A stretch of 64,000 nucleotides of DNA from Candidatus Latescibacterota bacterium (lineage in GTDB: Bacteria > Latescibacterota > UBA2968 > UBA8231): the NCBI GenBank assembly GCA_965221775.1, contig CBDCSU010000006.1, forward strand, positions 992,001 to 1,056,000, written 5' to 3'. Positions 4,534-64,000 of the stretch are shown one piece after another. The translations under genes and the position numbers were made by a program. Under the pieces are notes generated by a model. The model was not told the origin of the DNA, did no database searches, and saw only the letters and a program-made list of their open reading frames with translations. Numbering within the stretch: position 1 is the first letter of the stretch; each line of letters starts with the position of its first letter.

Positions 4534-4544
4534 GTCATTCTCAC

Positions 4545-10881: not shown

Positions 10882-11216
10882 TGGGTGGGCTCCACGGTGG
10901 CGGGGGAAGCGAGTCTTGCAGGACCGATGCCCGAAGGGACCGGGGCGTTCCGGACGGTGTATGGGATACGTCGGCCAGCAGTACAGTGGCAACCCCGGTC
11001 CCGCGGCCTGCGCGCCCCGCCCGGGCGGCCGGGCTTCCTCCGGGGCCGGAGGCCTGCCGGGTTGGCGGGCGGCCTCCGCGAGCGGATGGGGCCGGTTGGC
11101 GGACCACGGTCCCGCGGCCTGCGGCCTTGCCGGCAGCCCGGCTCCCCCGCGGGCGGACGCAGGCCGGTTGGCGGGTCCCGCTCAGGGGCGGTACATATAG
11201 GCCGCGTCCCCGAGTC

Positions 11217-12194
11217 ATGAGCGAATGCCATCCCGAAGCCGGTCTGCCGGCCGACTTTCTCTCCCGCGTGGAGCGGCTGCTGCCCGCCGCGCGCCTGGAC
11301 GGCTGGCGCCGCTCCCTGGGATCTCCGCCGTCAGCGGCCTTCCGCGTCAACACGCTGATGGCCGCCGAGGAGGAAACCGTGGCCGAGCTGCGGCGGGATG
11401 GGATCACCCCCCGGCCCCTGGAGTGGCCCCCGGGGGCCTGGGTGGCGGCGGCGGACCAGCGGCGCGCCCTGGTCGACAGCGGCGCCGCCCGCGAGGGGCG
11501 CGTGTACGTGCAGAACCCGTCGAGCATGGTGCCCGTCCTGCTGCTCGACCCGCAACCGGGGGAGGAGATCCTCGACCTGGCGGCGGCGCCGGGCGGCAAG
11601 ACGGTGCAGATCGCCGGACGCATGGACAACCGCGGACGCATCGCCGCGGTGGAGTCGGTGAAGGCGCGCTTCCACCGGCTGCGGCGCAACCTGGAGCGCT
11701 GCGGGGTCACCATCGCCCGGACCTACCTGGCCGACGGCGGCGGCGTGGGGCGCAAGGTGCCGGAGCGCTTCGACCGGGTGCTGCTCGACGCGCCGTGCAC
11801 CTCCGAGGGCCGCTTCCGCGCCGGCGACCTGGCCAGCTTCCGCTACTGGGGGCCGAAGAAGATCCGCGACATGGCGCGCAAGCAGAAGCAACTGGCCATC
11901 TCCGCGGTGCGCGCCCTCAAGCCCGGGGGCGTCCTCGTGTACTGCACCTGCACCCTGGCGCCGGAGGAGAACGAAGCCGTCGTCGACGGACTCCTCGAAC
12001 GCTTCGGGGAGGCCCTGAAGGTCGAGGCTCTCGACCTGCCGGAAGCGTTTGCGGAGCCCGCCCTGCCGGAGTGGGAGGGGCGGAGCTTCCAGGCGGCGGT
12101 GGGCCGTTGCGCGCGCCTGGCCCCCGACGAGACGCGGGAGGCGTTCTTCGCGGCGCGGCTGCGCAAGCTCGAGAGCACGGAGGCGGACGGATGA
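11217..12194 (+). CDS. RsmB/NOP family RNA (cytosine-C5) methyltransferase (RsmF-like)
   Basis: YVQNPSS, LDLAAAPGGKT, LLDAPCT, VYCTCT, ENE motifs. Confidence 0.92.
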   Translation: MSECHPEAGLPADFLSRVERLLPAARLDGWRRSLGSPPSAAFRVNTLMAAEEETVAELRRDGITPRPLEWPPGAWVAAADQRRALVDSGAAREGRVYVQNPSSMVPVLLLDPQPGEEILDLAAAPGGKTVQIAGRMDNRGRIAAVESVKARFHRLRRNLERCGVTIARTYLADGGGVGRKVPERFDRVLLDAPCTSEGRFRAGDLASFRYWGPKKIRDMARKQKQLAISAVRALKPGGVLVYCTCTLAPEENEAVVDGLLERFGEALKVEALDLPEAFAEPALPEWEGRSFQAAVGRCARLAPDETREAFFAARLRKLESTEADG

Positions 12195-17912: not shown

Positions 17913-18002
17913 GCTCAATCCCTCCGGCAAGAGATGCTGCTTGACTTCTGAATATAGATCCTGAGCGTGCCCGCCAAGCCGGGGCTGCCGCAGGATCCGC
18001 AC

Positions 18003-19316
18003 TCATGACTCCATTACCAGCCGGAACCCGGGGATGGCGAACTGGAAGGTCAGGGGCCAGAAGTTGCGGTAGCTGATGCGGATGTGGTCCTTGGGCGTCG
18101 CCCAGCTCCCCCCCTTGAGGACCATCTTGTTGCTCATGAACTTGCCGTTGTACTCGGCGATGGCGCCGGGGTAGGGCCGGAATCCGGGGTAGGGCAAATA
18201 GGAGCTGTTGGTCCATTCCCAGACGTTGCCCATCATGTGCTTGAGCTCGCCTTCCTGAGGCGTCATCGCCGGCCGGTACAGCTCCCCTCCCAGAAGCACC
18301 GCCTCACTATTTCGCACCTGCGCCATGGCGTCGGTGCGCCGGGCGGCGTGCTCCCATTCCGCCTCGGTGGGCAGGCGCACGATCCTGTCCTCGCCGCGGC
18401 TTTTCCAGTTGGCGTAGGCCGCAGCCTCGAAGTAGCTCAGGTGAGAGACCGGCTCGTGGGGATCCGTCTCCTGCCAGCCTTGCAGGGTAAACCGCTGCCA
18501 CCTGCCGTCGATCTGTTTCCAGTAGAGGGGGGCCCGGGGGAAAATCTCCCGGTCCGCCAGCCGGAGCACCGGCCGCATGGAGCCGTCATCCCAGGCCTCG
18601 GCGAACCACCAGGCGAAGTTCTCGTAGCCGCCGTCGGCGATGAACTCCAGATATTCACCGTTGGTCACCGGGCGGTTCATCATGGCGAAGGAATGGATGT
18701 ATTGCCGGTGCACCCCGTACTCGTTGTCGAAGCCGAACCCGCCTTCCACGTTGCCCACCTCTGCTATGGTCTCCTCGAAGGGGACCCACCGGAGGGGGAT
18801 TTCCACCGAGCCCGGGGCGCGGGACTCGCCGCTGATGGGTCTGCCCTCTGCGCGGCCCTCGAACCGGTTGCGCAGAACCTCGGTGTAGAACAGCTCCTGG
18901 TGCTGCTGCTCGTGGTTGATTCCCAACTCCATCAGGCGGTCGAACTCTTCACCGTGGTCGCCGTCGAGGAGCAGGTCCATCACCTCGTCCACGTCGGACC
19001 GGTACTTCAGTATGCTCTGGAGAGGGGCCTCGTGGACGAGTACCGCTCCGCGGCAGGCCTGGCGCACGTGCTTGCCCGCCCCCTTGTAGTAGGAGTTGAA
19101 GTGATACCACAGCTTGCCGTCCCCCCCCAGGGACCCGGCGTACCTGCCGAGGATGACGGCGTCGAAGAACCAGTTGGTGTGGCCAAGGTTCCAGGCCGGC
19201 GGGCTCACCTCCTGCACGGCCTGGTGGTACAGCTCCTCCTCGCTCAGCAGCGCCACCATTTCGAGAGAGTGGTTGCGCACCCTGTGATACCTCTCGCGCA
19301 GAGAATCAACAGACAC
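18003..19316 (-). CDS. egtB: Ergothioneine sulfoxide synthase EgtB-like (DinB + FGE-sulfatase domains)
   Basis: GHTNWFF, FNSYY, HEQQHQEL, GNVWEWT, EYNGKFM, SYRNF; AAAGGAGG RBS before GTG. Confidence 0.85.
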   Translation of the reverse strand: MSVDSLRERYHRVRNHSLEMVALLSEEELYHQAVQEVSPPAWNLGHTNWFFDAVILGRYAGSLGGDGKLWYHFNSYYKGAGKHVRQACRGAVLVHEAPLQSILKYRSDVDEVMDLLLDGDHGEEFDRLMELGINHEQQHQELFYTEVLRNRFEGRAEGRPISGESRAPGSVEIPLRWVPFEETIAEVGNVEGGFGFDNEYGVHRQYIHSFAMMNRPVTNGEYLEFIADGGYENFAWWFAEAWDDGSMRPVLRLADREIFPRAPLYWKQIDGRWQRFTLQGWQETDPHEPVSHLSYFEAAAYANWKSRGEDRIVRLPTEAEWEHAARRTDAMAQVRNSEAVLLGGELYRPAMTPQEGELKHMMGNVWEWTNSSYLPYPGFRPYPGAIAEYNGKFMSNKMVLKGGSWATPKDHIRISYRNFWPLTFQFAIPGFRLVMES

Positions 19317-19453
19317 AATTCCTCCTTTACCCATGGGGATTTGTAAGGCACGCCTTTCGGGACCCGTCGTCAAGGGTTGGAGGTGCCGGTGTCAGGGGAG
19401 CCCGGACAGCCCCTGCAGGGCCGGCCATTCGGCCCGGTGGCATCAGAAACCGC

Positions 19454-19493
19454 TTGACAAGCCCTTCATTTACTCTATTTTGCAGAGTACTCT
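19454..19493 (+). promoter_or_regulatory. sigma70 promoter overlapped by palindromic operator
   Basis: TTGACA at 19454, TATTTT at 19476; TACTCT-N7-AGAGTA plus extra TACTCT half-site. Confidence 0.7.
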
Positions 19494-19547
19494 GTATCGA
19501 TCACCCCAGCAAGCACTCGAGTGCTGCCGCACTAGGAGAATCTCCCC

Positions 19548-20132
19548 ATGGAACCCGAGGTGACCCGGAAGCTGGAGGAAGACGTCTCCTTCGTCCGCCA
19601 GGCGGTGGAGCAGCGGGACAAGGCCGAGTACAAGTCGCTGGCGATCATCGTCATGTGGGCCGTGATCGTCGCCGTAGGATACGCCCTGAACGACTTCGCC
19701 ATGGACTACGTGCCGTTCTACTGGATGACCGCCCCCGTGGCCGGCTTCCTGGTCAGCCTCGCCCTCGGCAGCCGGTCCGACAGGAAGCGGGGACTGAGCC
19801 GGCCGGGCCTGAGCGCCCGCCACGGTCTGCACTGGGGCACCATCTTCCTCGGCGGCATGGCGGTGATCTCCATCGCCGTGGCTCACCGGTTCGACGGCTG
19901 GGTCATCGGCCAGCTCTTCGCCCTCCTCACCGGCGTGGTGTTCTTCCTGGGCGGTCTCCACCTCGACCGGCGCACCCTCTGGCCGGGGGTCCTGCTCATC
20001 TGCGGGGCCGCCGCCGTCGACCACATTCAGCCATACCCGTGGACCATCGTCGGCCTGGCCACCGCCGCGACCCTGGTGGCCAGCGCCCTGTGGATGAAGC
20101 CGAAGGATGAAGAAGCCGTCGCAGCCGGCTGA
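19548..20132 (+). CDS. Hypothetical 6-TM membrane protein
   Basis: AGGAG RBS; six hydrophobic segments. Confidence 0.8.
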   Translation: MEPEVTRKLEEDVSFVRQAVEQRDKAEYKSLAIIVMWAVIVAVGYALNDFAMDYVPFYWMTAPVAGFLVSLALGSRSDRKRGLSRPGLSARHGLHWGTIFLGGMAVISIAVAHRFDGWVIGQLFALLTGVVFFLGGLHLDRRTLWPGVLLICGAAAVDHIQPYPWTIVGLATAATLVASALWMKPKDEEAVAAG

Positions 20133-36940: not shown

Positions 36941-37755
36941 ACCGCGACCACCGCCTGCGGCTGCTCGCCTGTCTCACCGTCGCCTTCTGGACCGCCGTCT
37001 TCCTGCAGGCGCCGATCCCGCAGGATCCGGCCTATCACGAGTTCGCCGATCAGCGCCCGCTGCTCGGCATCCCGCACTGCCTCGACGTGATCTCCAACCT
37101 GCCCTTCCTCCTCGTGGGTCTGTGGGGATCGCGCCTCCTCTTCCGCCTCGCCGCGACCCCGGGGCAGCAGGCCTTCCTGCGCCCGGCGGACGCGCTGGCC
37201 TACCAGGTCCTCTTCCTCGCGGTGGCGCTGGTCGGTCTCGGCTCCGCGTGGTATCACCTGGACCCCGGCAACGGGAGACTGGTGTGGGACCGCCTGCCCA
37301 TGAGCGTCGCCTTCATGGCCTTCCTCGCCGCGGCTCTCGCCGAGCGCGTGGACCGGCGCGCCGGCCTCCTGGCGCTGCCGCCGCTGGTCGCCTTCGGCCT
37401 CTTCAGCGTGCTCTACTGGCACTTCACGGAGCAGGCGGGAGCCGGAGACCTCCGCTACTACATCGTCGCCCAGGCCTACCCGGTGGTCTTCGTGCCCCTC
37501 ATGGTGCGGCTGCTGCCGTCGCCCTACACGCGCGGCTCCGATCTCTACGTGGCCGCCCTCCTCTACCTGCTGGCGAAGGCCGCAGAGGTCTTCGATCAGG
37601 AGATCTACGGGGCCGGGGGATGGATCAGCGGCCACACGTGGAAGCACCTGCTGGCCGCTCTCGGGGCCTGGTGGGTGCTGCGCATGCTCCGGCGCCGCCG
37701 GCTCGTCGAGGAGCCGCAGGGCCGGGCCGGGGATCGACGCGGGAGGGTGGACTAG
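36937..37755 (+). CDS. Alkaline ceramidase-like (CREST) membrane protein
   Basis: QDPAYHEFADQR, SNLPF, GSAWYH, WDRLPM, SGHTWKH. Confidence 0.85.
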   Translation: MNRDHRLRLLACLTVAFWTAVFLQAPIPQDPAYHEFADQRPLLGIPHCLDVISNLPFLLVGLWGSRLLFRLAATPGQQAFLRPADALAYQVLFLAVALVGLGSAWYHLDPGNGRLVWDRLPMSVAFMAFLAAALAERVDRRAGLLALPPLVAFGLFSVLYWHFTEQAGAGDLRYYIVAQAYPVVFVPLMVRLLPSPYTRGSDLYVAALLYLLAKAAEVFDQEIYGAGGWISGHTWKHLLAALGAWWVLRMLRRRRLVEEPQGRAGDRRGRVD

Positions 37756-38687
37756 TTGACTGCGGACCCGGGCGGACGGCCCTGGCGCAGGGCGGAGGCG
37801 CGGCGCCTGAGGCGGGCGGCTTCGTCGGCCTGGCCGGCATCCAGGATCGCCGCCAGGTCCTCCATGACCAGTGCCAGCGCAAGGGGTGGCCCGCCGGCTC
37901 CCTGGTACGAGGCGACGGCGCGCTGGTACTGGGTGACGGCCTCGTCCCGCCGGCCCTGGTACTCGTAGAGCCGGCCCAGGGCATGGTGGGCGAGAGCCAC
38001 GTCCTCGTGATCGGGGCCGTACAGGCTCTCGAAACGGCCGCGGGACTCGCCGTAGTACTGCTCCGCCTTCCCCAGGTCGTCGCCGATGGCGTTCTCGAAG
38101 CCGAAGGCGTAGAGCTGCAGGGCGAGGGCGCGTTCGGCGAGGGAGTCCGCCCGCGCGGTGTCGCCGCGCAACCGCAGGACCCTGCTGAGTCCGTGCAGGG
38201 TATAGGACATCGTCCGGTCCTCGGGGAGCAGGTCGACGAGACCGGCCTCCCCCAGCTGCAGTATCTCGGACCAGTGGGTCTCGGCCCGGTCCACGCGGCC
38301 GAGGCGCAGACTGATCTCGGCGAGGGAGCCGAGGGTGCGCGCCAGGACCAGACCCGAGAGACTGTCCGCCGCCATCCGCTCCCGCTGCAGGGCCAGGACC
38401 TCGACGTAGAGGCTCTCCGCCTGGGCCAGGTCGCCCCTCATGGCGCGGCCCATGGCCAACCCGCTGAGGGCCGCCAGCCGGCCCTCGCGGGACCCCGCGG
38501 CGGCGGCTTCTTCCAACGCGGCGCCGAAGTGGGTCACGGCGCGGTCGTAGAGCTTGTCGTGGAGTGCCTTCTGGCCGCCGCGGACCCGCACCTGCCAGGG
38601 CTCCAGCTCCGGCTCGCCGCAGCCGGCGAGGACCCCCGTGAGCAGGCAGGCGGTGATGGCCAGAGGGAGAAACGAGGTGTCGCGCAT
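37752..38687 (-). CDS. TPR lipoprotein
   Basis: Lipobox LAGC; kinesin-light-chain-type TPRs (YGPDHEDVA). Confidence 0.8.
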   Translation of the reverse strand: MRDTSFLPLAITACLLTGVLAGCGEPELEPWQVRVRGGQKALHDKLYDRAVTHFGAALEEAAAAGSREGRLAALSGLAMGRAMRGDLAQAESLYVEVLALQRERMAADSLSGLVLARTLGSLAEISLRLGRVDRAETHWSEILQLGEAGLVDLLPEDRTMSYTLHGLSRVLRLRGDTARADSLAERALALQLYAFGFENAIGDDLGKAEQYYGESRGRFESLYGPDHEDVALAHHALGRLYEYQGRRDEAVTQYQRAVASYQGAGGPPLALALVMEDLAAILDAGQADEAARLRRRASALRQGRPPGSAVN

Positions 38688-38807
38688 GGAGTTTGAACCA
38701 AAGGGCGGGTCCCGAAACCGTCAACCAGTTTGCGCCGGGACCCGCGCCTTCGCCTAGGTACGGGTTTCCCGGGCCCATCCCCCTTCCCAGGAGAGCGGAA
38801 CCCCGAG

Positions 38808-39431
38808 GTGAACGCCGTCGGCAACGATCTGGTCTACCTGGCCGACCCGGAGATCGCCGGGCACCACCTCCGGGCCCGCTTCGTCGCGCGCGTGTGCGCT
38901 CCCGGGGAGCGCGACCGCCTGTCCGGCAGCGGCGAGCCACTCGTGCTGCTGTGGTCGCTGTGGGCCGCCAAGGAGGCCGCCTACAAGGCGGCGGGCAAAA
39001 CGCGCCCGGGCCTGGTCTTCGCGCCGCGCCTCTACGAGGTGGACGCCGCCATGGGCCGGGTACGCTACCGGGACCTGGAGATGCGGGTGCGGCTCTCGAG
39101 GGACCCGCTGTGGGTCCACGCGGTGGCGGTCTGCGGCGAGGGAGATCCCGGTCGGGCGGTGGCCGGTGTCGAGCCCATCCGCGGCGGCCGTCACCAGAGC
39201 CAGGCCGTGCGCGACCTCGCCCGGCGCGGGGTGGCCGCCCACTTCGGCCTGCAGGAGACGCGCCTGGCCATCGAGAGGCGCCGCGACCCCGGGGCCCGGG
39301 ACGGACTGGCGCCGCCCCGGCTGCTGCTCGACGGGCGCCCGGCCGGCATCGATATCAGCCTCTCCCACGACGGACCCTTCGCGGCCTTCGCCGCCCTGCC
39401 TCAGGGAGCCCCCCCGGCTTCGAGCCGCTGA
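38808..39431 (+). CDS. 4'-phosphopantetheinyl transferase
   Basis: VGNDLV, LWAAKEAAYK, ISLSHDG. Confidence 0.88.
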   Translation: MNAVGNDLVYLADPEIAGHHLRARFVARVCAPGERDRLSGSGEPLVLLWSLWAAKEAAYKAAGKTRPGLVFAPRLYEVDAAMGRVRYRDLEMRVRLSRDPLWVHAVAVCGEGDPGRAVAGVEPIRGGRHQSQAVRDLARRGVAAHFGLQETRLAIERRRDPGARDGLAPPRLLLDGRPAGIDISLSHDGPFAAFAALPQGAPPASSR

Positions 39432-40234
39432 CGCAGCTCGCGCTCCTCCTCGGCCAGGTTCGCCACCTCCGCCAGCACCCGCCGCCCGGCCTTGACCTGG
39501 TTGCGCAGCAGCCGCGGGTCCTCCCCGTCGAAGGGCGACAGGTCGACGGGGGCGCCGAAAGCGACGATGACCGGGGGGCCGGAGCCGGTGTAGTTGTAGA
39601 CCGCCTCGCGGGCCAGGTTGTCGCTGATCCCGTTGATGAAGACGGGGATCACGATAGCCCTCGACTGCAGCAGGACGCGTCCGAACCCGGGCTCGGCGGG
39701 CAGCAGCTCGTAGGGGTCGGGTCCCCTGCCGCGCGTGCCCTCCGGGTGGATGCCGACGAAGGTCTCCGGCGACCGCAGTTGCTCGATCAGGTAGTCGAGG
39801 CAGGCGCGGGTGACGCCGCGCTTGGCCCGCGGCCGGAAGATCGGCGGGTACATGTTGCAGGAGCTGGCCAGGAAGTTGACGAGGATACCCAGGGGGTTGT
39901 CGTAGAAGAAGTTGGAGCGGACGGGGAAGAACCAGCGCCGCCAGAAGCCGACGTGCTCCACGAGGTGGGCGAGGATGAAGAACTGATCGAGAAAGGTGCG
40001 ATGGTTGGCCGCCATGATCACGCCGCGGTCCGGCTGCAGGGAGGCAACCCTCTCGAGCCCGATCAGGTGGGTCCGGCGGCTCGTGCCCAGCAGCACGAAC
40101 CGCCGCTGCAGGCGCAGGTTGAGCCAGTAGAAGGCGCGTTGCACCGCCGGCGTCTCGTTCATCCACCCCGCGAAGGCGAGGCCGAGACGCTCGACGTGGC
40201 TCAGGCTGGCCCGTTCATCGGCGGATATGCGCAC
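39401..40234 (-). CDS. Lysophospholipid (PlsC-like) acyltransferase
   Basis: ANHRTFLD (HX4D), HPEGTRG. Confidence 0.88.
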   Translation of the reverse strand: MRISADERASLSHVERLGLAFAGWMNETPAVQRAFYWLNLRLQRRFVLLGTSRRTHLIGLERVASLQPDRGVIMAANHRTFLDQFFILAHLVEHVGFWRRWFFPVRSNFFYDNPLGILVNFLASSCNMYPPIFRPRAKRGVTRACLDYLIEQLRSPETFVGIHPEGTRGRGPDPYELLPAEPGFGRVLLQSRAIVIPVFINGISDNLAREAVYNYTGSGPPVIVAFGAPVDLSPFDGEDPRLLRNQVKAGRRVLAEVANLAEEERELRQRLEAGGAP

Positions 40235-40270
40235 GAGGCCGGCCTGGTGGCGGAGGGGGTCCTGCGGGGA

Positions 40271-40519
40271 TCAGCCCGAGGTGGCCACGATCAGGTTCAC
40301 CGCGTCGCCCACGGTGGCCACCTGATCGGCGTCGTCGTCGGAGACCTCGATGCCGAAAGCGTCCTCGATCTCCAGCACGATGTCGACGAGCCGGGCGGAG
40401 TTGACCTCCAGGTCGGCCTGCAGCGAGGTCTCCATGGAGACCCCCGACAGGGCTTCCTCGTTCTTGGCGAAAGGCTTGAGGATGGCGACGATCTTGTCGA
40501 AGACTTCCTGCGTGTTCAT
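40271..40519 (-). CDS. Acyl carrier protein (NS-type attachment motif)
   Basis: DLEVNSARLVDIVLEIEDAFGIEV...TVGDAV. Confidence 0.92.
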   Translation of the reverse strand: MNTQEVFDKIVAILKPFAKNEEALSGVSMETSLQADLEVNSARLVDIVLEIEDAFGIEVSDDDADQVATVGDAVNLIVATSG

Positions 40520-40558
40520 CGTGTCGTTCCTTGCGTTGCGGTGAAGTGGTTTTTCTGG

Positions 40559-41842
40559 TCAGTCGAACTTCCGGAAGATGACGCAGCCGTTGACGTCTCC
40601 GAAGCCGAAGCTGGCCTTGGCGATGACCGCGAGATCGGGCGCCTCCACGGTCTCGTGGGGAATGCGGTCGGCGTAGGCCTCCAGTTCGGGGTGCAGATCC
40701 TCGCAATTCAGCGACCCGTGGACAAATCCCTCGTGCAGCTCGAGGACGGCGGCGACGCACTCGAGGCCGCCGGCGGCGCCGAGGCCGTGGCCGATGAGGG
40801 ACTTGGTGCTCTGGATCCAGGGCATGTCACCAGGCTCGCGGCCGAGGGCCCGGGACCAGTTGTGGACCTCGTGGGGGTCGGCGAAGGTGGCGGTGAGGTG
40901 GCCGTTGATGGCGTCGACCTCCTGGCCGCGAATGCCGGCCATGTCGAGGGCCGCCCCCAGGCAGCGCTGCACGCTCACCGGGTTCGGCGCCGTCATGCTG
41001 CCCCCCTGGCGATGGCCGCCGCAGTTGAGGGCGCAGCCGATGACCTCGGCGTAGATGCGGGCGCCGCGCTCGCGGGCGCTGTCCAGCTCCTCGAGCATGA
41101 GCACGCCGGCGCCCGACCCGGGCACGAACCCGGCGGCGCTGGCGCTCATCGGGCGGGAGGCGGCCTCGGGCTCGTCGTTCTTCGTGCGATTGAGGACGCG
41201 CATGGCGTCGAAGCCGGCCCAGATGTAGTGGGAGTGGCCCTCGGAGCCGCCGGCCAGCATGCGCCGCGCGAGTCCGTCGCGGATGCGGTGATAGCCCTGG
41301 ATGACCGCCTCGGTGCCGGTGTTGCAGGCGCTGGAGTTGGTGCTCACCTGGTTGCCCAGGCCGAGCTTGCCGGCGATGCGGGCGCTGTTGCCGCTCGACA
41401 TGATCTGCTCGACCATGGTGCTGCCGAGGCGCTTCACCCGGCCCGCTTGGGTGCGCGGCGCCAGGGTCTCGGCGATCGTGTCGATGCCGCCGATGCCGGT
41501 GCCGATGATGCCTCCCGTGTCCCAGTCGGGCTCGCCGCCGTCGGGCTCGGGCAGGTCCAGTCCGGCGTCGGTCCAGGCGTCGATGGTGGCGATGGCGGCG
41601 TAGACCATGTTGGCGTTCATGGCGAACAGCTCTTCGCCGGTGAGGTAGCGGCCCTGGATCTCCTCCACGTTGGCGGGCACGCCGCCCACCTGGCAGGCGA
41701 AGTTCAGGTCGGCGAGCTGCTGGTGAAAGGCGATGCCGCTCACGCCGTCGCGCAGGGCCCGGCCGAACTCCTCCAGGCCGTGTCCGTTGGGGGCCAGCAC
41801 CCCCATGCCGGTGACGACGACGCGCGGTTCAGAATTGCTCAC
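40559..41842 (-). CDS. Beta-ketoacyl-ACP synthase (FabF/FabB-like)
   Basis: VVVTGMG, SSAC, NGHLTAT, KSLIGHGLGAAG, SFGFG. Confidence 0.92.
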   Translation of the reverse strand: MSNSEPRVVVTGMGVLAPNGHGLEEFGRALRDGVSGIAFHQQLADLNFACQVGGVPANVEEIQGRYLTGEELFAMNANMVYAAIATIDAWTDAGLDLPEPDGGEPDWDTGGIIGTGIGGIDTIAETLAPRTQAGRVKRLGSTMVEQIMSSGNSARIAGKLGLGNQVSTNSSACNTGTEAVIQGYHRIRDGLARRMLAGGSEGHSHYIWAGFDAMRVLNRTKNDEPEAASRPMSASAAGFVPGSGAGVLMLEELDSARERGARIYAEVIGCALNCGGHRQGGSMTAPNPVSVQRCLGAALDMAGIRGQEVDAINGHLTATFADPHEVHNWSRALGREPGDMPWIQSTKSLIGHGLGAAGGLECVAAVLELHEGFVHGSLNCEDLHPELEAYADRIPHETVEAPDLAVIAKASFGFGDVNGCVIFRKFD

Positions 41843-42287
41843 GGGCGACTCCCATTCCGGAGACCGTGCCGCCGGCCACGTAGGTCCCGTCGGCCAGCTT
41901 CAGCTCGACCTTCGATTTCAGCTTCCTCCTTCTCCAGAACATCTTCTCGGCGGAGACGCGCACCGTCTCCCCCGGCCCCACGACGCGCTCGAACTCGACC
42001 TCGGCATCGGTGAAGAGGGTGACCGTCTTCGCCACCTCCCGCGCCGGAAGCTCCATGCCCAGCAGGTGGATGCCGAGGGCCACCAGACCCGTCTGGCACA
42101 TCGTCTCGATGAGGATCACCCCCGGGGTCACGGGATGCCCCGGGAAGTGGCCGGCGTAGAACGTCTCGTCGTCGCGGAAGGTGTACTCGCCCACGGCGCT
42201 GGTCTCGCCCAGGTCCACCAGGCGGTCGATGAAGCGGAAGGGCCGCTGCTGCGGGATGAGGTCCAGGACCTGCTCCGGCGTCAGCAT
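41829..42287 (-). CDS. 3-hydroxyacyl-ACP dehydratase (FabZ-like)
   Basis: IPQQRPFRFID, GHFPGHPVTPGVILIE. Confidence 0.9.
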   Translation of the reverse strand: MLTPEQVLDLIPQQRPFRFIDRLVDLGETSAVGEYTFRDDETFYAGHFPGHPVTPGVILIETMCQTGLVALGIHLLGMELPAREVAKTVTLFTDAEVEFERVVGPGETVRVSAEKMFWRRRKLKSKVELKLADGTYVAGGTVSGMGVAREQF

Positions 42288-42877
42288 CAGGCGCGGTCCA
42301 TGATGCCACCGACGCTGTGCTCCGAGCGCAGCGGGTAGTCGGGGTAGGCGATGCCGAGGAACATGCCGACCTTGGCGTCCCTGACGGTGTAGATGTGCTC
42401 GCCGTCGACCAGGACCTTCGCCGTGCCGATGGCCACGGCGGAGCCGGACTCCTTGAGCTGGGAGAACCGCCGGATGTCGACCTCGTAGCGCACGGTGCGG
42501 TTGTAGGGGCGGATCTGGCCGGCGAACTCCACCTCCTTGCAGCCCAGGGCCCGCCCCGAGCCCGGGGCCCCGCAGGCGGCGATGTAGAGCCCCACGAGCT
42601 GCCAGACGCCGTCGACGCCGAGACAGCCGGGCTGCACCGGGTCGGAGCGGAAGTGGCAATGGAAGAACCAGTCGTGGGGGGCGATGTCCTGCTCGCCGAC
42701 GATGCGGCCCCGCGGCCCCCGGCGCTCGAGCTCGGTGACCCGCGTGATCATGAGCATGGGCGGGGCCGGCAGGCGGATGAACTCCTCCGGCGCGTCGGCG
42801 ACGAGGTTGCCCTGGGACAGGGCCAACAGCTCCCCGGAGTCGTAGTGGCCGCGCTCGACGAACTCCGCGTAGGTCAC
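42287..42877 (-). CDS. fabA: 3-hydroxydecanoyl-ACP dehydratase/isomerase
   Basis: RLPAPPMLM, WFFHCHF..DPVQPGCLGVDGVWQLVG, GRALG, F.GQI.P. Confidence 0.88.
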   Translation of the reverse strand: MTYAEFVERGHYDSGELLALSQGNLVADAPEEFIRLPAPPMLMITRVTELERRGPRGRIVGEQDIAPHDWFFHCHFRSDPVQPGCLGVDGVWQLVGLYIAACGAPGSGRALGCKEVEFAGQIRPYNRTVRYEVDIRRFSQLKESGSAVAIGTAKVLVDGEHIYTVRDAKVGMFLGIAYPDYPLRSEHSVGGIMDRA

Positions 42878-43878
42878 GGCCCTTCCCCCGCGTCGATGCG
42901 CATCGCCGACCAGGTGAGCCCCGCCCCGACGACGACCAGGATGAGGGAGTCGCCCTCTTCCATGTCGTCCCAGCACTGGGAGAGGACCCCGGGCGCCCCG
43001 GCGGCCCCGGTGTTGCCGAAGCGGTCGACGTTGTACCAGTGGGCATCCTCTTCGAGGCCGAGGCGCCGGGCCACGGCCTCCAGCATCAGCAGGTTGGCCT
43101 GGTGACCGATGAAGCGCACCCGGCCGCCGGTGGCGGCGGTGCGTTCGCGCGCCCCCGGCAGCAGGTCCTCGGCCGAGGAGGCCGTCGTCTTGATGGCGAA
43201 GCGCTGCACCGCGTTGCCGTCCTGCCAGAAGTGGCCGAAGCGCGGGATTCGGACCGCCTCCCAGCGAGCCGAGTCGGCCGCCAGGGTCGTCTCCACCACC
43301 CGCAGAGGGCCCGGTTCCCGCGAGGAGAGGACGGCGGCGCTCGTGCCGTCGCCCCACAGCACCGCCGTGCGGCGGTCGCCGTAGTCGATGGCGCGGGTCG
43401 TGTTCTCCGGGTTGACGACGAGCACGAAGGGAGGAAGGCCGGACATGGAGGACAGGAAGTGCAACTGGGCGCCGAAGGTGGAACAGGCCGAGTTGAGGTC
43501 GATCCCCGGGGCGTCGATCTCGAGGGCCGCGGCGATCCGGCTGGCCTCGGCCGGGATGGCGGTGTCGGGATAGCACCCGCCGGCGATCACCAGTCCGATC
43601 TGCTCGCGGCCGACGCCGGCGCGGTCGAGGGCCAGCCCGGAGGCGCGCACCGACGTCTCGGCATTGTCGTAGACCGCCGCCTCCCGCGCCTGGCGCGGAT
43701 CCCCGTTGCGCGTCTCCCGGATGTAGTCCAGGGGCAGCACCGTGCGGCGCTCGCGGATCCCCACCCGCTCCAGGATCCAGCCGTCGTCAGTGCCGATGTC
43801 CAAGTCCTCGAGAAACGCGTTGTCGATGACGTTCTCGGGATGGAAGTGCCCCATGCCGTGGATGAACAGATCCGCCAT
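42874..43878 (-). CDS. Beta-ketoacyl-ACP synthase III (FabH-like)
   Basis: GIRERR, NSACS, GHQAN, FGNTG triad motifs. Confidence 0.9.
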   Translation of the reverse strand: MADLFIHGMGHFHPENVIDNAFLEDLDIGTDDGWILERVGIRERRTVLPLDYIRETRNGDPRQAREAAVYDNAETSVRASGLALDRAGVGREQIGLVIAGGCYPDTAIPAEASRIAAALEIDAPGIDLNSACSTFGAQLHFLSSMSGLPPFVLVVNPENTTRAIDYGDRRTAVLWGDGTSAAVLSSREPGPLRVVETTLAADSARWEAVRIPRFGHFWQDGNAVQRFAIKTTASSAEDLLPGARERTAATGGRVRFIGHQANLLMLEAVARRLGLEEDAHWYNVDRFGNTGAAGAPGVLSQCWDDMEEGDSLILVVVGAGLTWSAMRIDAGEGP

Positions 43879-43930
43879 CTGGCCTCAGCCGCGAACCTCC
43901 GCCCGATCAGGGTAAGGCAGACCCGGGCTA

Positions 43931-43971
43931 AACAGGCGTAACAATCTGTTCTCCAACAGGTTGGGTGTCAA
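43931..43971 (-). promoter_or_regulatory. sigma70-like promoter of the fatty-acid cluster with overlapping CTGTT/AACAG inverted repeats
   Basis: Minus strand TTGACA-N17-CAGATT; CTGTT-N4-AACAG at 43946-43959. Confidence 0.55.
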
Positions 43972-44076
43972 AGGAGGACTCTCCCGCCGGGGGCGGGCCG
44001 GGCCCGCCGTCGATTGCACAGACACCGGTTCCGCCCCGGCCCGTCGCCGGGTCGGGTGGGAGGGCAGCCCACGAGG

Positions 44077-44253
44077 TCAGGCCCCGGGGTCCGCCCGCGT
44101 GGGTGTCACCTCCGGCACGGGGCCGGTGTCGGTGGGGTCTCCCGGAGGGGGTTCGGACTCCACGCCCGGAGAACTGGTCGTGAAGACCCCCCTGCCGCAG
44201 GAGGCCAGCAGGACGAGCAGGAGCAGGAGCGCGAGAGAGCGGCGGAGCGCCAT
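44077..44253 (-). CDS. Small (58 aa) Pro/Thr-rich lipoprotein, not in ORF track
   Basis: MALRRSLALLLLLVLLASC lipobox; GGAG RBS. Confidence 0.7.
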   Translation of the reverse strand: MALRRSLALLLLLVLLASCGRGVFTTSSPGVESEPPPGDPTDTGPVPEVTPTRADPGA

Positions 44254-44354
44254 GGGGACAGCTCCCGTCTACGGGGCCAGGAGATCACGGCCAGCCGGGG
44301 CCGCAGCGGAACGGCCCCGCCCGAGGGTTGCCGGCGGGGCCGTTTGCACACACA

Positions 44355-44431
44355 TGGTGGGCGATGCTGGATTTGAACCAGCGACCTCCGGTATGTGAGA
44401 CCGGCGCTCTAACCAACTGAGCTAATCGCCC
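44355..44431 (-). tRNA. tRNA-Val(CAC)
   Basis: GGGCGAT acceptor; anticodon loop CTCACAT; CCA end. Confidence 0.95.
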
Positions 44432-44444
44432 GGCGGTGAAGGCC

Positions 44445-44521
44445 TGGTGGGCCCACCAGGGTTCGAACCTGGGACCAACGGATTATGAGTCCGCCGCTCT
44501 GACCAGCTGAGCTATGGGCCC
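44445..44521 (-). tRNA. tRNA-Ile2(CAT) (lysidine type; Met not excluded)
   Basis: GGGCCCA acceptor, anticodon loop CTCATAA, position after dnaG. Confidence 0.9.
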
Positions 44522-44568
44522 GGGGGGTACGACCGGCCGGACAAAGTTGCCGACGCCGCCCGGCAGGG

Positions 44569-46398
44569 TCAAGACTGAGCGGCCGATCCCTGGCCCTCCA
44601 GCCGCGTCCGTTCCACCACGAGCCGGCGATGGGCGGCCTGCAGCCGCTCCACCTCGGCTGAGTCGCCGGCCTCCGAAGCCCGCCGCAGCTGCCGGGTGGC
44701 GTTCTCGATGCGCCGCGTGAGGTCCGCGCGCCTCAGCCGATGCAGGTGGTCGCGCCACAGCTCCTCCACGTGTCCGGGGTCGAAGCTCTCCATGGCGCAG
44801 GTGGAGACCAGGCGCCGGAGGTCCTCGTCCACGTGGTTCAGCAAGGCCGTTAGGTCGACGTGGCCGTCCTCCGGCGGATGGCCGGTGAGATAGTCCACCA
44901 GGCGGCGGACGTCGGCATCGGCGAAGAGCTCGGAGGCGAGGTGCTCGCGGCTCCGCCCGACCAGCTCCGGGTGCTGCAGCAGCAGGCCGACGAACTGGCG
45001 CTCAAGCTCGCTCCCGGTGGCCGGCTTCGGGGCGCCCCCCGCGGTGCGCGGCCGGGGAGCCTGGGCCTCCGGCTCCTCGGGGAGGGCCCGCCGGGGACGG
45101 GACAGGGCCGCGCCCACGTCCCGCCGCAGCGCCTGCTCGTCGACCTCGAAGCGCTGCGCCACGCGGCGCAGCATGAGGTCGCGGCGGACCTCCTCGCGGC
45201 ACTGCGAGAACAGGGGTACCAGCCGGTCCACGGCGCGGGCCCGGCCGGCGACGGAGGTCAGGTCGACGGCCGCCGCCATGCGGTCGAGGTAGACGTCGAG
45301 GGCGGGAGGAGCCGACTCGACCAGCTCCTCCAGCGCCTCGGCGCCGCCCTCCCGGCGGACGAAGCTGTCGGGATCCTGACCCGGGGGAAGGGTGGCGATG
45401 CGGGTGTCGAGCTCCGTCCCGAGGAGCACCTCCACACCGCGCTCGGCCGCCGTGCCCCCGGCGGCGTCGCCGTCGAAGAGCAGGACGACGCGCTCGGCGT
45501 AGCGCCCCAGCAGCCTCGCGTGGGCCGGCGTCAGGGAAGTCCCGGAGGAGGCGACGACGTGGGTGGCGCCGTGCTGCACCAGGCCGATGACGTCCATGTA
45601 GCCCTCGACCACCAGCGCCGTCCGTCGGCGGCGGATCGACTCCCGCGCCCCGGCCATCCCGTAGAGCACACCGCTCTTGTGATAGATCGGGGTCTCCGGA
45701 GAGTTGAGATACTTCGGCTCGTCGTCGTCGCGCAGGGCCCGCGCGCCGAAGCCGATGGTGCGGCCCGACAGGTTGGTGATGGGGAATACGACGCGGTCCC
45801 GGAAGCGGTCGTAGTGGCCGCGGCCGGAGCGGCCCGGAAGGGCGAGGCCGGCCTGCTCCAGTTCCTCGGCGCGGAAGCCTCTCCTGGGCTTCGTCGCCAT
45901 GTCGAGGAAGCTGGTCCATCCCCCCGGGGCGTAGCCGAGGCGGAAGGTCTCGGCGGTCTCGTCGGTGACCCCGCGGCGGTGCAGGTAGCGCAGCGCCGCC
46001 GCGCCCTCGGGACGGCGCAGCATGTACTGGAAGTACTTCGCCGCAAGCTCGTTGGCGCGGAAGAGCCGGTCGTTGCGCTCGTCGTCGGCCGCGGCGCCCC
46101 CGGACCGGGGCAGCGGAATCCCGGCGCGCCCGGCGAGGAAGGTGACGGCCTCGAGGAAGGAGACCTTGTCGATCTCCTGGAGGAACTTGTAGACGTCGCC
46201 GCCGACGCCGCAGCCGAAGCAGTGATAGATCTGCAGCTCGGGATTGACGTTGAAGGAGGGCGTGTTCTCGTTGTGAAACGGGCACAGCCCGAGCCAGTTG
46301 CGGCCCTGTTGACGGAGCTGGACGTGCTCCGAGGCGACCTCGACGATGTCGGTGGCCGCCTTGATGCGCTCGATGGTATCCCGGGGGATTTCGGGCAT
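44569..46398 (-). CDS. dnaG: DNA primase
   Basis: CPFHNENTPSF...CFGC zinc finger, KYLNSPET, VEGYMDV, FDGDAAG, DPD. Confidence 0.97.
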   Translation of the reverse strand: MPEIPRDTIERIKAATDIVEVASEHVQLRQQGRNWLGLCPFHNENTPSFNVNPELQIYHCFGCGVGGDVYKFLQEIDKVSFLEAVTFLAGRAGIPLPRSGGAAADDERNDRLFRANELAAKYFQYMLRRPEGAAALRYLHRRGVTDETAETFRLGYAPGGWTSFLDMATKPRRGFRAEELEQAGLALPGRSGRGHYDRFRDRVVFPITNLSGRTIGFGARALRDDDEPKYLNSPETPIYHKSGVLYGMAGARESIRRRRTALVVEGYMDVIGLVQHGATHVVASSGTSLTPAHARLLGRYAERVVLLFDGDAAGGTAAERGVEVLLGTELDTRIATLPPGQDPDSFVRREGGAEALEELVESAPPALDVYLDRMAAAVDLTSVAGRARAVDRLVPLFSQCREEVRRDLMLRRVAQRFEVDEQALRRDVGAALSRPRRALPEEPEAQAPRPRTAGGAPKPATGSELERQFVGLLLQHPELVGRSREHLASELFADADVRRLVDYLTGHPPEDGHVDLTALLNHVDEDLRRLVSTCAMESFDPGHVEELWRDHLHRLRRADLTRRIENATRQLRRASEAGDSAEVERLQAAHRRLVVERTRLEGQGSAAQS

Positions 46399-61330: not shown

Positions 61331-62127
61331 CACATCCACGCCGACGCCGTCATCGGCTGGGCTGGTCGGTCTTCAACGACTACGACTCCGAGGGCAACCC
61401 CCTGAGGTTCCGGCCCCGCACCGTGTGCGCCCTGGCCGGCGCCTGCCGGCGCATCCGCCACCTGTCGCTGGCCGACTCCCTCGGCGTCGACTTCCACAAG
61501 ACCGGGTTCGCCCCCTAAGTCTCCAGCCTCGTGGTGGTGAAGGACGGGGAGGACCTGCAACTGGTGACGCGGAGCCCGGAGCAGATGCCCTACCTCTACC
61601 ACTCTCGGCTACCACCGGCCCGGCATGTACACCCTTGAGACCTCCGGGCCGGCACCGGTCCCTTGGCCGCCCTCTCCAACTACCGCCTCTTCGGCGAGCG
61701 GGGCCTCCAGGCCGCGATCGGCCATCTCGTCGAGATGGCCCAGCTCCTGCGCGAGCACCTCGAAGGACACGAGGGCAGGACCGTCCTTCAACGGCGACAA
61801 CTTCGGCACGGTGACCCTCTTCCGCGCCTCTCTCCCGGGGGTGGACACCTTTTCCATCAAGGAGCGGAGTTCGACGACCCGGCCTGGCGGGAAAGCCTGA
61901 TCGCCGGCAACGACTTCAACTGGAAGGTACTCGACTACGTGCACTCGGAGGCGTTGGAGGGGCGGGGCGTCGTCATCTCCTCCACCGACTGCTATCGCCG
62001 CACCGCCTACGACGAGCCGATCGTGGCCCTGAAGTCGTACATCCTGTCACCCTTCGTCGGCGAGCGCGACATCGAGGCGGTGGTGGCCAAGCTCCTGGAG
62101 GCCCGGGAGAAGATCGGGGGTGGTTAG
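61331..62127 (+). pseudogene. Group II PLP-dependent decarboxylase, 5'-truncated and frameshifted
   Basis: HIHADAVIGW, ADSLGVDFHKTGFAP then TAA at 61516; several frameshifts; ALKSYILSPF. Confidence 0.85.
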
Positions 62128-62305
62128 CCCGGACCAGTCGGGCTTGGAGCCCGTCAAGCTCGCCGCTGTGATGCCTATCCCGACGATCCTGTCGGTGCGA
62201 GCGTCATCAGTCGCCCTGTAGGATAAACTTTCGCTCGAATTGCTTCTCTCTCAGCCACAAGCTATCATCGTCGGCCGCCTAAGGCACAAACCCCCGGAGG
62301 ACCAA

Positions 62306-64000
62306 GTGAGTGATCTCGACATCGAGCATTTCTTGGGGCGCCTGAAGCAACTTGACGCACTGCGCGATTCAGACACGGTGAGACGTGGAGAACTCGACCG
62401 CATAGAGCCCCGCTACGCGGATGAATGGCCCCGGCAGCTCAACCCAGCAGTCGGTGAGGCACTGACACAGGCGGGAATAGCCCAGCCCTACCAGCATCAG
62501 GCCGATGCCATCGCCCTCAGCCTGAGCGGCGCGGACGTGGTGATGGAGTCCCCCACCGCCAGCGGCAAGACCCTATCCTTCACCGCCCCAATGCTCCACG
62601 CCCTGAAGCAAACTCGTGATTCCCATGCGCTGATGATCTACCCCATGAAGGCCCTGGCTTTCGACCAGCGTGAGCAAATCCGCCACATTTGCGAACCGCT
62701 CGGTGTAGAATCATGGCCTTACGATGGCGACGCGTCAGAGGACATCAAGACTTGCCTACGGGAAAGCCCTCCTCACATCTTACTGACCAATCCCGAATAT
62801 CTCAATATGTCATTCCTGGCAAGCCGGGAGTCGTGGAACAAACATGCGAAGGGATCTCGATTCCTGCGCAACTTACGCTATGTCGTCATTGATGAAATGC
62901 ACGAATACCGTGGGTTCTTCGGCAGCAACATGGCACTCTTGTTGCGCAGGTTTTTCCTACATCTCAGTCGCATTGAAGCACACCCCCAGGTGTTTCTTTC
63001 CACCGCGACCTGTGCCAATCCGAGGGAACATGCCCAGTCCCTGACCGGACGCGACATGGAAGTAGTGTCCGCAAGGAACGTGCTACGTCCCAGACGGCAC
63101 TTCCTCTTCGTTGATCCGGAAATCCCCTCCTTTCAGTACAGGGAAGTACTCCAGTTGCGTATCGAGCAAGCTGCACTCACCGCCCTTACTGAAGGGTTGC
63201 AGGTTCTGGTGTTCTGCCCCACCAAGCGCTTCCTGGAGGGGGCATTCCGCAATTGTCGGCGCAAGGCAGATGAGCAGGGCTTCGACCCAGATCAGATCTC
63301 TGCATTCCATGCCGACCTCAAGAGCGAACAACGTCAGGACATTCAGCAGGAGATCAAGGCAGGCAGAGTCCGTGTGGTGTTCACTACTAACGCCTTGGAA
63401 ATTGGGCTCGACGTTGGCGGCCTGGATGGAGTGATTCTAGCAGGTTTCCCCCCCAGCATAATGTCGGCTTGGCAGCAGATTGGCCGCGCCGGACGCGCGT
63501 GGGACCAAGATGCCTTCGTGCTCTTCTACGCCATGAACGACCCCATCGATCGCTTCTTTGTGGGCAATCTCGGAGCCTTCTTGGAAAAGCCCTTCGACGA
63601 ACTGGTGGTAGATCCTGCCAACGAAGAACTGATCGGCAAACACCTTCCTTCCCTGGTCGAAGAAACCGGAGGAAAAGTCTCGACTAGTGAAGAGGCCATA
63701 CTCGGCGGGCCATTCTACAGAAGGGCAGAGAAGAACACCGGGACGGTTCCGGCAGGCTTCAAGCCACAATTCGCTCTGAATCTCCGTGGAGCTATCGGAC
63801 AGTCTTTCGTCTTGAAGAGAGGCAATGAAGAACTGGGACAGGTTTCTGCCATGCGAAGGTTTCGTGAAGCCTACATAGGAGCCATTTTCCCCTTCTTTGG
63901 CCACCGCTATCATGTGCGCTCCCATGAGGAACAGTCTGTCGTCCTTGAAGACTCTGAACAGCACCTCCGAACCGAACCCGGATTCTACACAGTACTTTCC
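62306..64000 (+). CDS. SF2 DEAD/DEAH helicase, Hrq1/MrfA (DUF1998-associated) type; runs off the window
   Basis: GGAGG RBS; PYQHQ, PTASGKT, YPMKALAFDQ, TNPEYL, IDEMH, STAT, TNALELGLDVG, QQIGRAGR. Confidence 0.92.
   Translation, partial: MSDLDIEHFLGRLKQLDALRDSDTVRRGELDRIEPRYADEWPRQLNPAVGEALTQAGIAQPYQHQADAIALSLSGADVVMESPTASGKTLSFTAPMLHALKQTRDSHALMIYPMKALAFDQREQIRHICEPLGVESWPYDGDASEDIKTCLRESPPHILLTNPEYLNMSFLASRESWNKHAKGSRFLRNLRYVVIDEMHEYRGFFGSNMALLLRRFFLHLSRIEAHPQVFLSTATCANPREHAQSLTGRDMEVVSARNVLRPRRHFLFVDPEIPSFQYREVLQLRIEQAALTALTEGLQVLVFCPTKRFLEGAFRNCRRKADEQGFDPDQISAFHADLKSEQRQDIQQEIKAGRVRVVFTTNALEIGLDVGGLDGVILAGFPPSIMSAWQQIGRAGRAWDQDAFVLFYAMNDPIDRFFVGNLGAFLEKPFDELVVDPANEELIGKHLPSLVEETGGKVSTSEEAILGGPFYRRAEKNTGTVPAGFKPQFALNLRGAIGQSFVLKRGNEELGQVSAMRRFREAYIGAIFPFFGHRYHVRSHEEQSVVLEDSEQHLRTEPGFYTVLS

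Follow-up and report, generated by a model that had tools for sequence, protein, structure and literature searches.

A 64,000-nucleotide stretch of DNA from a Candidatus Latescibacterota bacterium (assembly GCA_965221775.1, contig CBDCSU010000006.1, positions 992,001 to 1,056,000 of the forward strand; hereafter the window) carries a compact set of seven genes of the fatty acid synthase (FAS) type, i.e., a FabH-like beta-ketoacyl-ACP synthase III (KAS III; ACP, acyl carrier protein), a FabA-like and a FabZ-like dehydratase, a single elongating beta-ketoacyl-ACP synthase (KS), a dedicated ACP, an acyltransferase (AT) of the LPLAT/PlsC superfamily and a phosphopantetheinyl transferase (PPTase). 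On balance, we favour the view that this module makes an unsaturated acyl chain by a private pathway of the FabA type, probably without the need for oxygen, and delivers the chain to a glycerolipid. We are confident to a good degree that the module is auxiliary and not housekeeping; the unsaturated nature of the product, as predicted from the sequences, is evenly poised, and a role in anoxia is put forward tentatively. The isomerase activity, the unsaturated product, the phospholipid acceptor and the anoxic role are all parts of this proposal that we infer.

Because the GC content of the window is 72%, many spurious open reading frames (ORFs) are open on both strands; real genes were called by a third-position GC content (GC3) above 0.9 together with Pfam matches, and a plus-strand ORF of 1106 aa that spans the cluster was counted among the spurious high-GC ORFs. 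An earlier interpretation made from the letters alone (the sequence-only reading) had described six co-directional, mostly overlapping genes with a PPTase at their 3' end, and GC3, Pfam and the gene junctions place all seven where it had put them. The operon lies on the minus strand and starts with the FabH-like KAS III (334 aa, 42874..43878; ACP_syn_III_C 65.6 bits, ACP_syn_III 48.9 bits), followed by the FabA-like 3-hydroxyacyl-ACP dehydratase and putative isomerase (196 aa, GTG start, 42287..42877; FabA domain 129.7 bits), the FabZ-like dehydratase (152 aa, 41829..42287; FabA-like domain 56.3 bits), the KS (427 aa, 40559..41842; ketoacyl-synt 107.1 bits, Ketoacyl-synt_C 86 bits), the ACP (82 aa, 40271..40519; PP-binding 31.3 bits) and the AT (277 aa, 39401..40234; PF01553 55.2 bits, cut-off 23). 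The PPTase is encoded on the plus strand and ends at 39431 (ACPS 41 bits, cut-off 25); it has 207 aa if it starts at the GTG at 38808, or 233 aa from the TTG at 38730, both candidate starts and the ribosome-binding site having been read from the sequence. The stop of the FabH gene and the start of the FabA gene share GTGA, the stop of FabA and the start of FabZ share TGATG, the FabZ and KS genes overlap by 14 nt, and these first four genes are translationally coupled. Gaps of 39 nt and 36 nt separate KS from ACP and ACP from AT, respectively, and the 3' ends of the PPTase and AT genes overlap convergently by 31 nt.

The products were compared with curated families using the NCBIfam cut-offs, and with the proteins of E. 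coli K-12 using blastp. Only the FabA-like protein passes an NCBIfam cut-off, while the FabH, FabZ, KS, ACP, AT and PPTase proteins all stay below, and the identity to the E. coli Fab proteins ranges from 31 to 44%. The catalytic motifs are intact, as had been claimed before, since every residue named then is present in alignments to solved structures or homologues. The FabH-like protein (185.5 bits against PRK09352, cut-off 249; 31% identity to E. coli FabH) retains the equivalents of Cys112, His244 and Asn274, and proteins of this kind also keep those of Trp32, Arg36 and Arg151. Its pocket differs from that of E. coli FabH, with isoleucine or threonine in place of F87, threonine or asparagine in place of L142, glutamine in place of both M207 and F213, valine in place of F304, and leucine or alanine in place of R249. 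Longer primers go with a small residue at position 87 in other members of the KAS III family; the small residue found here may hint at the same preference, which we regard as a lead only. The FabA-like protein is 44% identical to E. coli FabA and scores 192.1 bits with NF003509 (cut-off 124) and 163 bits with the stricter TIGR01749, i.e., below the cut-off of 238.15; its catalytic His (in FFHCHF) and Asp (in PGCLGVDGVWQ) align with those in the FabA structures of E. coli and P. aeruginosa. The FabZ-like protein reaches 73.1 and 70.8 bits with the two FabZ equivalogs (cut-offs 113 and 155), its best solved relatives are FabZ-type dehydratases (approx. 53 bits), and its His and Glu are aligned with theirs (GHFPGHPVTPGVILIE). 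In the KS the Cys, His, Lys and His are aligned; the protein is 33% identical to E. coli FabB and 31% to FabF, and with 282.7 bits for fabF (TIGR03150, cut-off 493.75) and 231.7 bits for FabB (NF005935, cut-off 630) it is, as judged by curated cut-offs, neither of the two. The best match to this KS on plasmids has 36.5% identity, so no close relative was found there.

The ACP is atypical. It scores below every NCBIfam ACP cut-off (59.7 versus 66 bits for the best model) and has no blastp match to E. coli AcpP at E <=0.001; its serine aligns with the phosphopantetheine serine of the B. subtilis ACP. The usual phosphopantetheine motif of ACPs is DSLD; here the serine is embedded in (V/I)NSARLVD, which is invariant in 19 of 19 loci that carry the module (see below). 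The neighbouring PPTase has an ACPS-superfamily domain and, with 207 to 233 aa, fits the size class of the Sfp-type enzymes (approx. 200 to 240 aa, as compared with 120 to 130 aa for AcpS); no solved relative was detected at E <=0.1. The dedicated ACP/PPTase pair of the sequence-only reading is thus borne out as a divergent carrier and an Sfp-sized PPTase, adjacent in 18 of 19 loci. Together, the NSARLVD motif and the adjacent PPTase point to a carrier that may be insulated from the main FAS; as a reason for the private ACP, insulation from a main FAS that uses other primers would be speculation. As for the AT, H78 and D83 of the HX4D motif, F103-R106 (FPVRS) and H163-G166 (in HPEGTR) are invariant in 33 of 33 aligned homologues. 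The protein is below all PlsC equivalog cut-offs, its only solved relatives are remote (PlsC 5kym and tafazzin, E approx. 0.004), and a homologue of 58% identity in the ESM Atlas led to generic PF01553 clusters only.

The distribution of the module was studied starting from the AT, for which 683 homologues at E <=0.001 were found among 3486 candidates. A profile built from 33 of these homologues yielded 559 relatives in species genomes, and the best 80 loci were examined, the presence of the module being scored by tblastn with the proteins of the window. The FabA/FabZ/KS/ACP module was found in 19 of these 80 loci (L001-L010, L014-L021 and L074), labelled as Latescibacterota, Gemmatimonadaceae, Polyangiaceae, Myxococcales, Planctomycetota and 'Proteobacteria', all metagenome-assembled genomes (MAGs). 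The comparison of gene order that had been suggested along with the sequence-only reading therefore revealed a module that recurs as a unit across phyla. Between phyla, the identities to the proteins of the window are 61-87% for FabA, 52-87% for FabZ, 63-80% for KS and 52-80% for ACP, with lower values for the AT (45-59%) and the PPTase (38-50%). The PPTase gene adjoins the module in 18 of the 19 loci; FabH is present in 15, absent from L021 and L074, and lost to contig ends in L014 and L017. Two arrangements can be recognized: in the Latescibacterota-type loci the AT gene ends the operon and the PPTase gene is convergent, whereas in the Myxococcota-type loci the PPTase gene ends the operon and the AT gene is convergent or divergent. 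In L005 a DDE_3 transposase gene (10913-12001) sits between the AT and PPTase genes. Loci L001-L004 belong to the window's own lineage, since their AT is 88-95% identical to that of the window and the flanks are common to both; these four near-identical loci carry conflicting labels, two being assigned to Candidatus Latescibacterota and two to Gemmatimonadaceae, which makes the phylum assignment of the organism behind the window uncertain.

In the databases, the FabA-like protein has more than 120 clusters at >=78% identity, and the KS has at least 120 homologues at >=73% identity among the matches listed; a minority of the matches to these two proteins carry organism names, and every one that does is a MAG. 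The NCBI pipeline names the former 'bifunctional 3-hydroxydecanoyl-ACP dehydratase/trans-2-decenoyl-ACP isomerase' and the latter 'beta-ketoacyl-ACP synthase family protein'. The sequence-only reading had noted that FabA is best known from the Proteobacteria; the FabA-like protein of the module is no oddity, given that these more than 120 clusters, which come from metagenomes, already bear the FabA name at NCBI.

A HMMER search with the FabA-like protein gave 2139 matches at E <=0.001, 56 of them at E <=1e-30. The best 150 include many large proteins (1200-2900 aa) in which three to eight FabA-like stretches occur; the query is 40-47% identical to single-domain FabA proteins and 31-39% identical to the multidomain ones. 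Of the shorter representatives scanned, 13 of 37 reached the TIGR01749 cut-off. A tree was calculated with IQ-TREE from 55 rows, comprising 13 module proteins, 16 labelled canonical (three of which sit just under the TIGR01749 cut-off, with 231-235 bits), 15 sub-threshold single-domain proteins, three domains from double-FabA proteins and eight segments of multidomain proteins. The FabA-like proteins of the module belong to a clade of 24 rows, together with other sub-threshold FabA-like proteins (ultrafast bootstrap/approximate likelihood-ratio test (aLRT) 99/99); the canonical side comprises 22 rows (86/93), and the multidomain segments are separate (100/98). In a quick tree E. coli FabA was placed on the canonical side (aLRT 88). 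The building of a FabA tree had been proposed earlier, and its outcome is a module clade apart from canonical FabA. The clade of the module also includes P0242, P0243 and P0249, proteins of approx. 390-400 aa with two fused FabA-like domains. Five rows labelled Latescibacterota group together (100/94), and the nearest non-Latescibacterota row by path length is that of the Polyangiaceae locus L018; the tree is unrooted, and this topology is compatible with a possible transfer between phyla.

Another important aspect of the module is the set of activities that it does not encode. In the window, tblastn (E <=0.01) detected no second KS, ACP, FabH or FabZ, no FabD and no enoyl reductase, and none of the 42 flanking ORFs scanned had a Pfam match to a short-chain dehydrogenase/reductase (SDR) or to Acyl_transf_1. 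The lack of fabD, fabG and fabI, which the sequence-only reading had taken as a property of the cluster, holds for the window; however, the fabD and fabI gap is peculiar to the clade of the window, considering that 12 relatives have an enoyl reductase and six have FabD. In those 12 loci (L005-L010, L015, L018-L021 and L074) an SDR gene lies directly upstream of FabH or FabA, and in the window and L001-L004 a tRNA pair and dnaG abut FabH at the place where the relatives have this SDR. In the window, an ORF of 58 aa with a lipoprotein-like signal (LLASC) lies between tRNA-Val and FabH (44079-44253, minus strand), i.e., at the position that the enoyl reductase gene takes in the relatives. A Tyr-x6-Lys motif marks the enoyl reductases FabI and FabL, and Tyr-x3-Lys marks ketoreductases; the SDR of the relatives shows YAAVSAAK, with Tyr and Lys invariant in six of six aligned sequences. 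Its best NCBIfam model is FabL, with 93-136 bits, far under the cut-off of 328. The FabD homologues occur near the module in L009, L015, L017, L018, L020 and L074 and score 157-247 bits, as compared with the fabD cut-off of 261. As for ketoreduction, no candidate gene adjoins the module in 18 of 19 loci; L009 has one extra classical SDR. Without a ketoreductase the module is not self-sufficient and would have to use a FabG encoded elsewhere, and it is mainly this ketoreductase gap that would argue for an auxiliary module.

The neighbourhood of the module in some Myxococcota-type loci supplies a reason for an oxygen-independent route. Neighbouring proteins were scanned with Pfam and NCBIfam (138 proteins, then 17 more). 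L018 has nosD (345 bits), nosF/Y-like genes and a di-haem peroxidase; L020 has a clade I nosZ (901 bits) and nosDFY; L021 has nnrS, a Crp-family gene, an AhbD-like radical SAM gene, a clade II nosZ (843 bits) and nosD; and L074 has norB and a nirK-like gene (243 bits versus a cut-off of 296). Using tblastn, nosZ, nosD, norB, nirK-like or nnrS genes were found within 10 kb in four of the 19 module loci, all Myxococcota-type; the 61 module-less loci gave no such match. Beside the module, L019, L021 and L074 share an orthologous regulator of the Crp/Fnr family (45-56% identity), which does not have the FNR cysteine cluster. In L074 the AT, nirK-like, crp, FabD, enoyl reductase, FabA, FabZ, KS, ACP and PPTase genes are co-directional and tightly spaced, and a TTGATCGATGTCAA box is located 54 bp upstream of the first gene of this array. 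Boxes were accepted with one mismatch at most to the FNR consensus, and only 17 such boxes occur in the 1.34 Mb examined; L074 is the exception, as no such box was found near the module in the other 16 of 17 sequences checked. The sole match in the window is at 51579, far from the cluster, and the Latescibacterota-type loci are without denitrification context.

According to the mechanism that we propose, the convergent Sfp-sized PPTase would turn the dedicated ACP into its holo form, the FabH-like enzyme would prime synthesis, the single KS would elongate the chain and the FabZ-like enzyme would carry out the ordinary dehydrations. The FabA-like enzyme would dehydrate as well and, at one chain length, would isomerise the trans-2 intermediate to cis-3; by this isomerisation the chain would escape enoyl reduction and the cis double bond would be kept without the use of oxygen. 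The LPLAT-type AT would then transfer the finished acyl chain from the private ACP to a glycerolipid acceptor. Ketoreduction would be borrowed from the main FAS, and the clade of the window would borrow enoyl reduction and malonyl loading too. By analogy, the combination of a FabA-family dehydratase, a general FabZ and one KS would mirror the logic of oxygen-independent unsaturated fatty acid synthesis.

Several points weigh against this proposal. The module FabA lies outside the characterised canonical clade, so that isomerase activity is not transferable to it by orthology; likewise, the KS is equidistant from FabB and FabF, for which reason it is no more than an assumption that the KS handles cis-3 intermediates as FabB does. 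A plain FabA/FabB pathway would have no need of a private ACP, and it is presumed that this genome encodes a housekeeping FAS. In addition, neither the window nor L001-L004 has the enoyl reductase and FabD genes of the relatives. In 61 of the 80 loci the AT homologue (38-52% identity) occurs without the module, and the tie between AT and module is therefore not obligatory. As regards anoxia, the window has no denitrification gene, and no Crp-family regulator or FNR-type box was found near the cluster; the link comes from four distant relatives and one binding-site match. The stand-alone AT genes were also considered as a guide to the acceptor. A homologue of approx. 40% identity adjoins the nuo (complex I) operon in L022, L026, L028, L032, L037, L040, L042, L057, L079 and other Kofleriaceae-type loci, and 35 of the 61 loci without the module share one gene family of this operon; this neighbourhood in Kofleriaceae was uninformative and the approach was abandoned.

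It could be argued that the cluster is simply the only FAS of the organism, i.e., a housekeeping one in an unusual layout, given that it encodes enzymes for initiation (KAS III), elongation (KS) and dehydration (two dehydratases) as well as an ACP, and that the core proteins are conserved across phyla at levels resembling those of housekeeping proteins. This is very improbable. Neither the cluster nor the 64 kb window has a ketoreductase, an enoyl reductase or FabD, and since these are missing from the cluster the cycle cannot run on its genes alone; six of the seven proteins are under curated cut-offs that housekeeping orthologues normally pass, the ACP is without DSLD, the PPTase is of Sfp and not of AcpS size, and the module is patchy across phyla with variable gene order. 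With an ACP under all cut-offs, NSARLVD in every module locus and no ketoreductase, the earlier statement that this is not the housekeeping fab layout is upheld. A different possibility is a synthase for a secondary lipid or pigment, namely a dissociated counterpart of the aryl-polyene/flexirubin-type or Pfa systems, whose polyene or polyunsaturated fatty acid (PUFA) chain is anchored to a lipid by the LPLAT. Aryl-polyene clusters comprise ApeI/P, ApeO/C, ApeE/F and ApeD, and Pfa synthases are associated with PfaE and, in the myxobacterial Pfa3, with an acylglycerolphosphate acyltransferase (AGPAT) domain; the two hot-dog dehydratases, KS, dedicated ACP, Sfp-type PPTase and LPLAT of the module resemble these parts. 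Multidomain proteins with three to eight FabA-like stretches are also numerous among the best 150 FabA-like matches, a B12-binding radical SAM gene lies beside the module in L009 and L010, and L009 has a CrtI-like oxidase. We consider this explanation unlikely, because there is one KS without a chain-length-factor partner, because the window and most relatives have no ketoreductase, thioesterase, adenylating enzyme, ammonia lyase or MMPL exporter, and because the module FabA groups with single-domain proteins, apart from the eight multidomain segments. Moreover, a polyene route does not need the enoyl reductase found in the relatives, and the presence of this enzyme speaks for a fatty acid as the product rather than a polyene.

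The chain could also be destined for a non-phospholipid envelope lipid, of the lipid A or ornithine-lipid type or another, in a manner similar to the rhizobial acpXL-fabZXL-fabFXL-lpxXL genes. Both sets of genes indeed combine a private ACP with a dehydratase, a KS and an acyltransferase; in the window the neighbours include a PMT_2 (ArnT-like) glycosyltransferase, a ceramidase-family protein with seven transmembrane segments (7TM) and a tetratricopeptide repeat (TPR) lipoprotein, and 7TM genes of the CREST/PAQR type recur in L007, L019 and L021. However, the AT belongs to PF01553 (LPLAT/PlsC) and not to the LpxL family PF03279, the PMT_2 and TPR neighbours are confined to L001-L004, and no lipid A or ornithine-lipid gene was found among the 138 neighbour proteins scanned, so that this destination also appears to be of low probability.

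The favoured reading of the module as a private route to an unsaturated glycerolipid chain can also be set against the systems already known. It shares with the E. coli and Pseudomonas FabA-FabB pathway a FabA-family dehydratase with His and Asp, in an operon with an elongating KS; in contrast, its FabA forms a separate clade, its KS is not FabB by cut-off, it has its own ACP, PPTase, FabH-like and FabZ-like proteins and LPLAT (in relatives also an enoyl reductase and FabD), and it occurs in non-proteobacterial MAGs. The housekeeping plsX-fabH-fabD-fabG-acpP-fabF cluster differs in that the window is without FabD, an SDR and a canonical acpP. The rhizobial acpXL-fabZXL-fabF2XL-fabF1XL-lpxXL cluster is likewise an auxiliary type II FAS that works on its own ACP and has its own dehydratase, KS and acyltransferase, the last of which installs the product; this cluster has no FabA, FabH-like protein or PPTase, it has two KS, and its LpxL-family acyltransferase targets lipid A, whereas the module has one KS, a PF01553 AT, FabA, FabH-like protein and PPTase. 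The aryl polyene, flexirubin and xanthomonadin clusters also possess two hot-dog dehydratases, a KS, a dedicated ACP and an LPLAT, and the module differs from them by having no KS/chain-length-factor pair, ketoreductase, thioesterase, starter activation or LolA/MMPL export among the cluster genes and the 42 window ORFs scanned; among the relatives, a LolA-like gene was seen in L008 only, 3.3 kb upstream. FabA-like dehydratase chemistry, an Sfp-type PPTase (PfaE) and, in myxobacteria, AGPAT delivery are found in Pfa-type PUFA synthases; these are very large type I proteins whose many domains include tandem ACPs, KS-chain-length factor and ketoreductase, unlike the discrete proteins of the module. 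The mycobacterial FAS-II (AcpM, KasA/B, HadABC, InhA and MabA) is comparable as a second ACP-dependent elongation system with a specialised ACP beside the primary FAS; however, its dehydratases are of the HadABC family, it has neither FabA nor LPLAT, and it extends long acyl primers to meromycolates. Finally, the anammox ladderane-type clusters described in PMC2649909 are without FabA, and they were set aside as not relevant. No description of the module or of fab genes in nos/nor neighbourhoods was found in the literature, subscription journals being outside the scope of this search, which agrees with the earlier suggestion of an undescribed system.

Upstream of the cluster lie tRNA-Val, tRNA-Met and dnaG, and downstream are the genes for the TPR lipoprotein, the ceramidase-family 7TM protein, the PMT_2 glycosyltransferase and a GFO/IDH/MocA oxidoreductase. 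Other genes in the window are chromosomal housekeeping genes, i.e., rho, rpmE, prfA, prmC, recA, a bamD-like gene and murB. Three stretches (2001-6000, 18001-20000 and 62001-64000) have a lower GC content (0.57-0.65) than most of the window (0.70-0.74) and may be islands or non-coding regions. The ceramidase-family gene (PF05875; 36943-37755, plus strand) is found near the cluster in the clade of the window and has a counterpart in L007 (12085-12960), with 49-50% identity, and genes of the HlyIII/PAQR family lie near the module in L019 (130-807) and L021 (1334-2005), their products being 51% identical to each other. Both 7TM families are members of CREST, a superfamily of putative hydrolases of membrane lipids, and they give two independent associations with the module. 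Genes for class I methyltransferases adjoin the AT gene in L020 (10814-11965) and L014 (10857-11813), the former resembling BioC, a malonyl-ACP O-methyltransferase (137 bits, cut-off 185). The B12-binding radical SAM genes that flank the module are located at 7464-11189 in L009 and 775-2163 in L010, and L009 adds a classical SDR and a CrtI-like flavin oxidase; these radical SAM neighbours give hints of further acyl-chain modification in some lineages.

Approximately 70-95 nt upstream of the FabH start, on the minus strand (43946..43972), a TTGACA is followed by the perfect palindrome CTGTTGGAGAACAG; the two were read from the sequence as a candidate promoter, and a promoter/operator here is a possibility for which the evidence is weak. 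Among the relatives, only the close ones L001, L002 and L004 share the palindrome. Its single match in the window compares with 0.31 expected, and 27 of 100 shuffles have at least one; with a conservation limited to these three relatives and a match within chance, CTGTTNNNNAACAG was discarded as a conserved operator. A promoter scan of positions 37500-44600 detected no sigma-70 site.

A broader version of the favoured reading can be formulated, which at present seems doubtful. The module would be a portable FAS that needs only a borrowed ketoreductase and brings its own carrier and delivery enzyme; in denitrifying Myxococcota it would be switched on by a Crp/Fnr-family regulator that senses nitric oxide (NO) or anoxia, it would keep membranes unsaturated when oxygen-dependent desaturases cannot work, and it would have spread between phyla into Latescibacterota and Planctomycetota. 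In its boldest form, this would be a dissociated type II counterpart of the Pfa-type synthases, making a chain beyond the reach of the main FAS. The insertion of double bonds by FabA without oxygen is textbook knowledge for the Proteobacteria, where it uses the housekeeping ACP. What is described here is a FabA clade packaged with a private ACP, PPTase, KS, FabH, FabZ and LPLAT, to which relatives add an enoyl reductase and FabD, in abundant uncultured lineages of soil and sediment. The orthogonal set of ACP, PPTase, FAS and acyltransferase could be of use in lipid engineering. If the module does provide unsaturated chains when cells denitrify without oxygen, this would account for the way in which otherwise aerobic groups that depend on desaturases, such as the Polyangiaceae, maintain membrane fluidity while reducing N2O or NO, and the module would be a marker for an anoxic denitrifying lifestyle.

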